From Escherichia coli 042 (GTDB lineage: Bacteria > Pseudomonadota > Gammaproteobacteria > Enterobacterales > Enterobacteriaceae), in assembly GCF_000027125.1 (NCBI RefSeq), contig NC_017626.1: a stretch of DNA of 64,000 nucleotides; one strand, written 5' to 3'. The first letter of the stretch is position 1; each line of letters opens with the position of its first letter. The position numbers were made by a program, and so were the translations under genes. The notes below the pieces were generated by a model. The model was given only the letters and a program-made list of their open reading frames with translations, searched no databases and was not told where the DNA came from. Shown in pieces: positions 63,571 to 64,000 of this stretch.

Positions 63571-64000
63571 CTTCGTAGGCAGCATCCGGCAGTCGGCGCA
63601 TAATGCCTGATGCGACGCTTAACGCGTCTTATCATGCCTACAGGTTTGTGCCGAACCGTAGGCCGGATAAGGCGTTCACGCCGCATCCGGCAGTTGGCGC
63701 ACAATGCCTGATGCGACGCTTGACGCGTCTTATCATGCCTACAGGTTTGTGCCGAACCGTAGGCCGGATAAGGCGTTCACGCCGCATCCGGCGGTCGGCG
63801 CACAATGCCTGATGCGACGCTTGTCGCGTCTTATCATGCCTACAGGTTTGTGCCGAACCGTAGGCCGGATAAGGCGTTCACGCCGCATCCGGCAGTTGGC
63901 GCACAATGCCTGATGCGACGCTTGTCGCGTCTTATCATGCCTACAAGTCTGTGCCGAACCGTAGGCCGGATAAGGCGTTCACGCCGCATCCGGCAGTCGG
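63571..64000. repeat. BIME array: at least four tandem units of about 101 bp, truncated by window end
   Basis: gcctgatgcgacgctt... recurs at 63605, 63706, 63807, 63908. Confidence 0.75.

Follow-up and report, generated by a model that had tools for sequence, protein, structure and literature searches.

A BIME-2 array of variable unit number between yjjV and yjjW in Escherichia coli

In Escherichia coli 042, the convergent genes yjjV and yjjW are separated by a known E. coli BIME-2, a tandem array of paired REP sequences that is catalogued as REP352 in K-12. The array lies at the far end of the stretch of 64,000 nucleotides analyzed here (referred to as the window; positions are counted from its first letter). 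Taken as a whole, the explanation that we consider very probable is that this BIME-2 was amplified in place, that its copy number drifts, and that its REP hairpins serve as barriers at the 3' ends of transcripts. REP and BIME arrays have been on record since the 1980s–90s, and since the locus is already annotated as REP352 in K-12, its identification in the window has little significance beyond bookkeeping. The structure of the array, its variation among strains, and the readings that compete with the explanation above are described below.

Architecture and extent of the array

In the classification of BIMEs, REPs are imperfect palindromes of 30-40 nt, and a BIME-2 consists of inverse z2 and y REPs that are joined by a short S linker, flanked by s, l, or r motifs, and present in multiple tandem copies that are well conserved within one locus and vary in number between strains; the linkers vary in length and sequence (PMC3333891). 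The original prediction had recognized the repeats as BIME units downstream of yjjV, and both parts of this assignment agree with what we found. The array is composed of y and z2 REPs in inverse orientation, it occurs as tandem copies of variable number, its REPs carry the GTAG tetranucleotide and the stem mismatch, and it is extragenic, being situated between the stop codons of yjjV and yjjW with the yjjV coding sequence directly upstream. The linkers are 16 nt (head-to-head) and 12 nt (tail-to-tail) long, and as both are short, the long L motif is excluded; the names "S" and "l" used here refer to the positions of the linkers.

Periodicity was assessed with Tandem Repeats Finder, which reports a period of 101 with 4.1 copies, 96% matches, no indels, and a score of 775 for window positions 63582-64000. 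A repeat search likewise gave a start-to-start distance of 101 throughout the array. The 16-mer GCCTGATGCGACGCTT, on which the original prediction had based its claim of exact periodicity, indeed occurs on the plus strand at 63605, 63706, 63807, and 63908 and nowhere else in the 64-kb window, and it had no matches in 100 dinucleotide-preserving shuffles. The point differences between units that had also been predicted amount to 2-5 positions in pairwise comparisons of the four units in the window. Seven positions vary among these units. None is in a stem; they fall in the linkers, in the loop of z2, or on the last base of y, which is unpaired.

In each 101-bp unit, a 16-nt linker joins an inverted z2 REP (38 nt) to a y REP (35 nt), and a 12-nt linker follows (Table 1). 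The orientation alternates strictly, with every y REP on the plus strand and every z2 REP on the minus strand. The REPs were located by a consensus scan using y and z2 strings that we take to be the consensus sequences of the two types, and both the Rfam Y-l-Z2 model and the independent REPs at 21380 and 55859, which the strings match exactly, served as a cross-check. The four y REPs deviate from the consensus at 0-1 positions and are identical in three of the four cases, and the four z2 REPs have one mismatch each. The GGCATGAT variant of the first z2 REP corresponds to one extra mismatch in the stem. The l linker occurs in the window as either GTTGGCGCACAA or GTCGGCGCAYAA.

Table 1. Positions of the array, its component repeats, and its upstream flank in the window
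Feature	Position	Strand	Remarks
yjjV CDS (metal-dependent hydrolase), upstream flank	62782-63564	+	ORF list and annotation of 99.9%-identical genomes; stop codon TAG at 63562-63564
BIME-2 array, part within the window	63575-64000	.	Decayed y REP, then four times l linker, z2, S linker, y; the window ends inside the fifth l linker
Decayed y REP, left edge, GTAGGCAGCATCCGGCA	63575-63591	+	Intact y REP at this place in K-12, CFT073, and FORC_031; 18 nt of upper stem and loop deleted
Tail-to-tail linker, "l"-type position, 12 nt, GTCGGCGCATAA	63592-63603	+	Again at 63693-63704, 63794-63805, and 63895-63906; restarts at 63996
z2 REP no. 1, locus-specific GGCATGAT variant	63604-63641	-	GTAG on the minus strand; 1 consensus mismatch; hairpin of -14.7/-15.2 kcal/mol as RNA
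Head-to-head linker, "S" position, 16 nt, AGGTTTGTGCCGAACC	63642-63657	+	Again at 63743-63758 and 63844-63859; variant AAGTCTGTGCCGAACC at 63945-63960 (fourth unit)
y REP no. 1, GTAGGCCGGATAAGGCGTTCACGCCGCATCCGGCA	63658-63692	+	0 consensus mismatches; -20.9 kcal/mol as RNA; 5' GTAG tail; 2-nt internal mismatch
Rfam naRNA4 (RF02564) match over y, l, and z2	63661-63739	+	Also at 63762-63840 and 63863-63941; 74.4-76.7 bits, gathering score 59.5
z2 REP no. 2	63705-63742	-	Consensus scan
y REP no. 2	63759-63793	+	Last base G for A; consensus scan and unit comparison
z2 REP no. 3	63806-63843	-	Consensus scan
y REP no. 3	63860-63894	+	Consensus scan
z2 REP no. 4	63907-63944	-	Consensus scan
y REP no. 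4	63961-63995	+	Consensus scan

RNA folding of the full array gave long-range y:z2 pairings without local hairpins, an outcome of the model that is taken as REPIN-like potential and that would be unrealistic as a co-transcriptional structure. Single REPs were folded separately in place of the whole array. Each intact REP is predicted to form a hairpin on either strand, in which the 5' GTAG (on the complement, CTAC) stays unpaired and the stem is interrupted by an internal mismatch of 2 nt. The predicted free energies range from -15 to -21 kcal/mol as RNA and from -7 to -12 as DNA (z of about -3 to -5 relative to shuffled sequences, and about -5 for RNA). Two neighboring REPs can also be folded as one long hairpin, with -45.6 kcal/mol for y-l-z2 (z = -5.6) and -46.6 kcal/mol for z2-S-y (z = -6.2). 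At the left edge of the array, the fold of 63565-63603 is no better than that of shuffled sequences (z = +0.72).

The original prediction placed the array at 63571-64000 and proposed at least four units continuing past the end of the window. The array is present, and its repeat-derived sequence starts with the decayed y REP at 63575 rather than at 63571. Of 5,426 complete genomes, 5,161 have a match that covers 80% or more of the region 62700-64000, and the features annotated under the match are yjjU and yjjV. Among the matches listed, the genomes closest to the window at the array end are those of TUM9757 (one mismatch in the array) and SCPM-O-B-7615 (three mismatches), both 99.9% identical, and these were used to extend the window. 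In both, the array does continue, but only for about 70 bp. These hold one more z2 REP (the fifth) and, behind an S linker, another decayed y REP, so that the four units predicted are nearly the whole array. The total is 4.8 periods at 96% matches, with five z2 and four intact y REPs. Two nucleotides separate the end of the array from the yjjW stop codon, and the array takes up almost all of the intergenic gap of 516 bp in these two genomes. The right-edge remnant, GTAGGCCGTATCCGGCA, is the same kind of decayed y REP as that at the left edge. Reading the sequence, we found that the deleted 18-nt segment of the decayed y REPs has a GCC direct repeat at each end, consistent with slippage across the hairpin.

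The left end of the array coincides with a difference in yjjV itself. The gene product has 259 residues (780 bp) in K-12, CFT073, and FORC_031, where the stop codon is the TAG within the GTAG of the intact y REP (comparison of window 63549-63574 with comparison locus L002, 6250-6262). The product encoded in the window has 260 residues (783 bp), its gene ends 10 nt before the decayed y REP, and the first intact hairpin begins 40 nt past the stop codon. The existence of these two C-terminal alleles indicates that the repeat has reshaped the end of a coding sequence. Since the y REP on the stop codon is intact in K-12 and decayed in the window strain, any translational effect of a stop-proximal REP would differ between the alleles. 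Such an effect, involving ribosome stalling, was reportedly described by Liang, Rudd and Deutscher in 2015. A passing allusion to an effect of REPs close to stop codons is also found in bioRxiv 10.1101/2024.07.17.603846.

Other REPs occur elsewhere in the window. A solitary z2 REP at 16727-16763 (plus strand) has a compensated stem variant, CCAGAT/ATCTGG, and a solitary y REP at 21380-21414 (plus strand) is identical to the consensus. Next to three tandem tRNA-Leu genes (55351-55669, minus strand) comes a small BIME made up of y, z2, and y REPs (55807-55951), which scores 73 bits with RF02564. The window further contains a defense island of three genes (930-10329, plus strand, with fragments to about 11720), which encode a DrmD-like SNF2 helicase (PADLOC DrmD, E = 4.9e-198), a Type III methyltransferase of 1034 residues, and a Type III restriction enzyme of 1126 residues; it is unusual for a Type III restriction-modification pair to be combined with an SNF2 protein. 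The fragments that follow this trio are annotated as a restriction endonuclease that binds phosphorothioated DNA and an HNH endonuclease. A copy of IS1A (15716-16484) adjoins a truncated fimbrial gene by nanC/nanM, and the fim region appears to be largely absent. Beside a brnT/brnA toxin-antitoxin pair lies another IS1, a degenerate one (35608-36378), at a site where K-12 has the hsd/mcr/mrr cluster.

Variation in unit number and unit order

To follow up the predicted variation in copy number, the strains were compared using a query in which the two unique flanks of the array were joined, and 59 complete E. coli genomes were sampled evenly down the ranking. The inserts fell into classes of approximately 25, 107, 208, 309, 411, and 511 bp, which correspond to zero, one, two, three, four, and five units and comprise 2, 12, 10, 9, 7, and 19 genomes, respectively. 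Two outliers exceed their class size by 18 bp, and in their sequences the terminal y REP is intact and not decayed, which accounts for the difference. The zero-unit allele, as seen in FXCREC043, consists of one intact y REP, the GTAG of which supplies the stop codon of yjjV. Four units are present in K-12, two each in O157:H7 and CFT073, and five in one ST131 strain; the window strain falls into the class of five as well. FORC_031 matches window positions 1-16600 at 100%, but has the other yjjV allele and another array.

Strains of similar unit number differ in the order of their unit variants, as defined by the z2 loop (TTAAC, TTGAC, or TTGTC) and by the variants of the S and l linkers; examples are the window, K-12, and SCPM-O-B-7615. 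On comparing the sequences, this is the pattern that unequal exchange between units would produce.

The locus-specific S linker was also scanned against one genome per species (100,044 species). Exact matches were found in only two other genomes, both from cryptic Escherichia and both between yjjV and yjjW. Escherichia sp. E1V33 carries two units (comparison locus L015, 2160-2400), and Escherichia sp. MOD1-EC7003 carries 11 units spanning about 1.1 kb (L016, 3225-4366), and hence the ceiling of five units in the E. coli sample is no hard limit. The z2 variant ATCATGCC, which has one extra mismatch near the base of the stem, is present in nearly all z2 copies that were read, including those of E1V33 and MOD1-EC7003, and the canonical form ATCAGGCC is mostly found in the last copy of an array. 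The prevalence of ATCATGCC, together with the presence of arrays in cryptic Escherichia, indicates that the units multiplied in place and that the array is older than E. coli proper.

The predicted variability is thus borne out, with zero to five units in E. coli and 11 in a sister lineage, and short-read assemblies may collapse the array at such a site. In our judgement, an array of about 0.5 kb is a problem for short-read more than for long-read assembly. The site is usable as a typing marker, and its alleles form a natural series for testing the effect of extra BIME units.

Origin, possible roles, and competing explanations

We propose that one y REP, located where yjjV ends, was the starting point of the array and was extended by repeated duplication of the z2-S-y-l module, and that the number of units now shifts through in-register recombination or replication slippage. 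The terminal y REPs would have lost their 18 nt across the hairpin, between the two GCC repeats. TnpA-REP (RAYT), a Y1 transposase, may help to change the unit number; the features by which it recognizes REPs, GTAG and the stem mismatch, are present in the REPs of the array. In vitro, where its substrates are single-stranded BIMEs, TnpA-REP binds REPs through these features, cuts at CT in inverted REPs and linkers, and joins strands into products with multiple REPs, and this joining was offered by the authors as a cause of copy-number variation in BIME-2 (PMC3333891). Of eight REP clusters that respond to stress, RAREFAN called all but REP352 as RAYT-associated (bioRxiv 10.1101/2024.07.17.603846).

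Going by what is known of the family, transcription would place the REPs at the 3' ends of the mRNAs of yjjV (plus strand) and yjjW (minus strand), where their stable stem-loops would stop 3'-to-5' exonucleases and lessen read-through into the gene opposite. This putative role as an RNA-hairpin barrier at yjjV–yjjW fits with the observation that nearly every allele examined has retained a REP that is intact and lies at the gene ends or close to them. One REP would be enough for a barrier, and extra units are therefore probably near neutral; the free range of zero to five further units suggests the same. A scan of the array for intrinsic terminators (hairpin plus T-run) found none, and promoters and terminators predicted within the array did not exceed shuffle expectation. 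As the hairpins lack a T-run, any termination would be by attenuation or Rho-dependent, not classical.

Nearly the same explanation minus the RNA barrier, i.e. that the array has no host function and reflects selfish or neutral expansion of REP doublets in a gene-free gap, is compatible with most of the data and is a possibility to be taken seriously, although we hold it to be doubtful. Copy-number classes from zero to five are all frequent, and the terminal REPs are decaying through deletion, both of which count in its favor; what weighs against it is that at least one intact y or z2 REP stands by the gene ends in nearly every allele examined, that the array has been kept at yjjV–yjjW across Escherichia lineages, and that the variation between units spares the stems, a pattern that concerted evolution could also give. 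The neutral expansion gains from data on DNA gyrase that at the same time bear on another reading, namely that the array is a strong gyrase site or topological buffer, with y REPs recruiting gyrase against the positive supercoils that arise between convergent yjjV and yjjW. Gyrase does bind and cleave BIME-2 in vitro and in vivo, with a preference for y REPs, and the position between convergent genes suits such a role. Cleavage sites are significantly over-represented in BIME-2 genome-wide, but this holds for "a subset" of the elements and is non-defining (PMC6379681). The gene names yjjV and yjjW are absent from the Topo-seq supplements, and the K-12 counterpart was located there by coordinate, as W3110 4620060-4620447 (387 bp), using the +5.8-kb offset that it has in common with REP325. 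No cleavage sites are recorded at this counterpart with ciprofloxacin, rifampicin plus ciprofloxacin, microcin B17, or oxolinic acid, whereas as many as 35 are listed for other loci of BIME-2 (PMC6379681 Table DS3). Given also that alleles with no or one unit are common in nature, we regard a gyrase site as unlikely, and DNA-level roles of BIME-2 more generally (binding of gyrase, HU, or Pol I) as possible but unsupported at yjjV–yjjW.

Every y-l-z2 module in the window exceeds the gathering score of the Rfam model naRNA4 (RF02564) on the plus strand, and scores reach up to 83.7 bits in comparison locus L001. This raises the idea that the array encodes naRNA4-like RNAs, the y-l-z2 segment being released as a two-hairpin RNA of about 77 nt that, with HU, bridges cruciforms and condenses the nucleoid. 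REP325 has the same architecture as the array, with a 100-bp period, and naRNA4 is described as requiring two hairpins such as Y and Z2, with about 80% of REPs being transcribed (PMC4550694). RF02564, however, in effect models any Y-linker-Z2 doublet: it matches the opposite strand of the array, though more weakly, and also the small BIME near the tRNA-Leu genes (at 55810-55892). The model thus recognizes BIME-2 modules in general, and a match shows membership of BIME-2 rather than a naRNA function; as a caution for annotation, it should not be read as a demonstrated nucleoid RNA. The linkers of REP352 are unlike those of REP325, and a natural copy number of zero to five speaks against an essential architectural role. 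We regard a naRNA function at yjjV–yjjW, for which the Rfam match and the common architecture speak, as improbable. A further hint comes from REP352 being one of only eight REP clusters that are protected from exonuclease under SDS and copper stress (bioRxiv 10.1101/2024.07.17.603846), which, combined with all modules passing the naRNA4 model, could point to a second naRNA-type locus, where HU-dependent organization of the nucleoid would involve y-l-z2 transcripts or cruciform/protein complexes induced by stress, with the range of 0-11 units acting as a heritable dose control; this we consider speculative and very improbable. Readings of the locus as an assembly artifact, a CRISPR-like array, or coding sequence can be dismissed with near certainty. 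Repeats are prone to mis-assembly, but the locus is found in more than 5,390 complete genomes in discrete 101-bp size classes; the repeats are separated by short constant linkers and not by unique spacers; and the ORFs of 49-69 residues listed within the repeat are impossible in the zero- and one-unit alleles and differ in frame between units, since the period, 101, cannot be divided by three.

Relation to known REP systems

The explanation that we prefer, a BIME-2 amplified in place, is best seen against the REP systems that resemble the array. REPIN-RAYT systems are alike in having inverted REPs about 12-16 nt apart that are able to fold as one long hairpin, with GTAG and the stem mismatch, but their doublets are dispersed singly, whereas the array in the window is a tandem amplification in one place. 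BIME-1 (RIP/RIB elements) is likewise extragenic and has REPs in inverse orientation. It differs in combining y with z1 REPs around a long, conserved L linker with an IHF site and in occurring as a single copy (PMC3333891); the array has z2 as the partner, linkers of 12 and 16 nt, and tandem units.

REP325, located between yjdM and yjdN in K-12, is a tandem BIME-2 of alternating y and z2 REPs, in which a 100-bp period recurs in 5.8 copies (96% matches). RF02564 was built on this element and matches the yjjV–yjjW units above threshold. The two arrays differ in the S linker (AAATTCCCGCACCCTCC in REP325, AGGTTTGTGCCGAACC in the window) and in the l linker (ACGGTGCCGACT in REP325, GTTGGCGCACAA in the window), the first 8 nt of the REP352 l linker being similar to the reverse complement of the REP325 linker. 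The z2 loop of REP325 is one base shorter, and REP325 lies between co-oriented genes, not convergent ones. The function with HU and naRNA has been demonstrated for REP325 only (PMC4550694).

The closest counterpart is REP352 of K-12. The RefSeq record of K-12 has no annotated repeat feature at the locus in its feature table, and the allele is listed in EcoCyc as REP352a-h, with a 2-nt overlap with yjjV (bioRxiv 10.1101/2024.07.17.603846). Locus, flanking genes, the 101-bp z2-S-y-l unit, and the z2 variant ATCATGCC are common to REP352 and the array in the window. With four z2 REPs and four intact y REPs, K-12 is one unit short of the window strain; the unit variants follow each other in a different order; and the first y REP, which is intact over the yjjV stop codon in K-12, is decayed in the window strain and lies 10 nt past the other yjjV C terminus.
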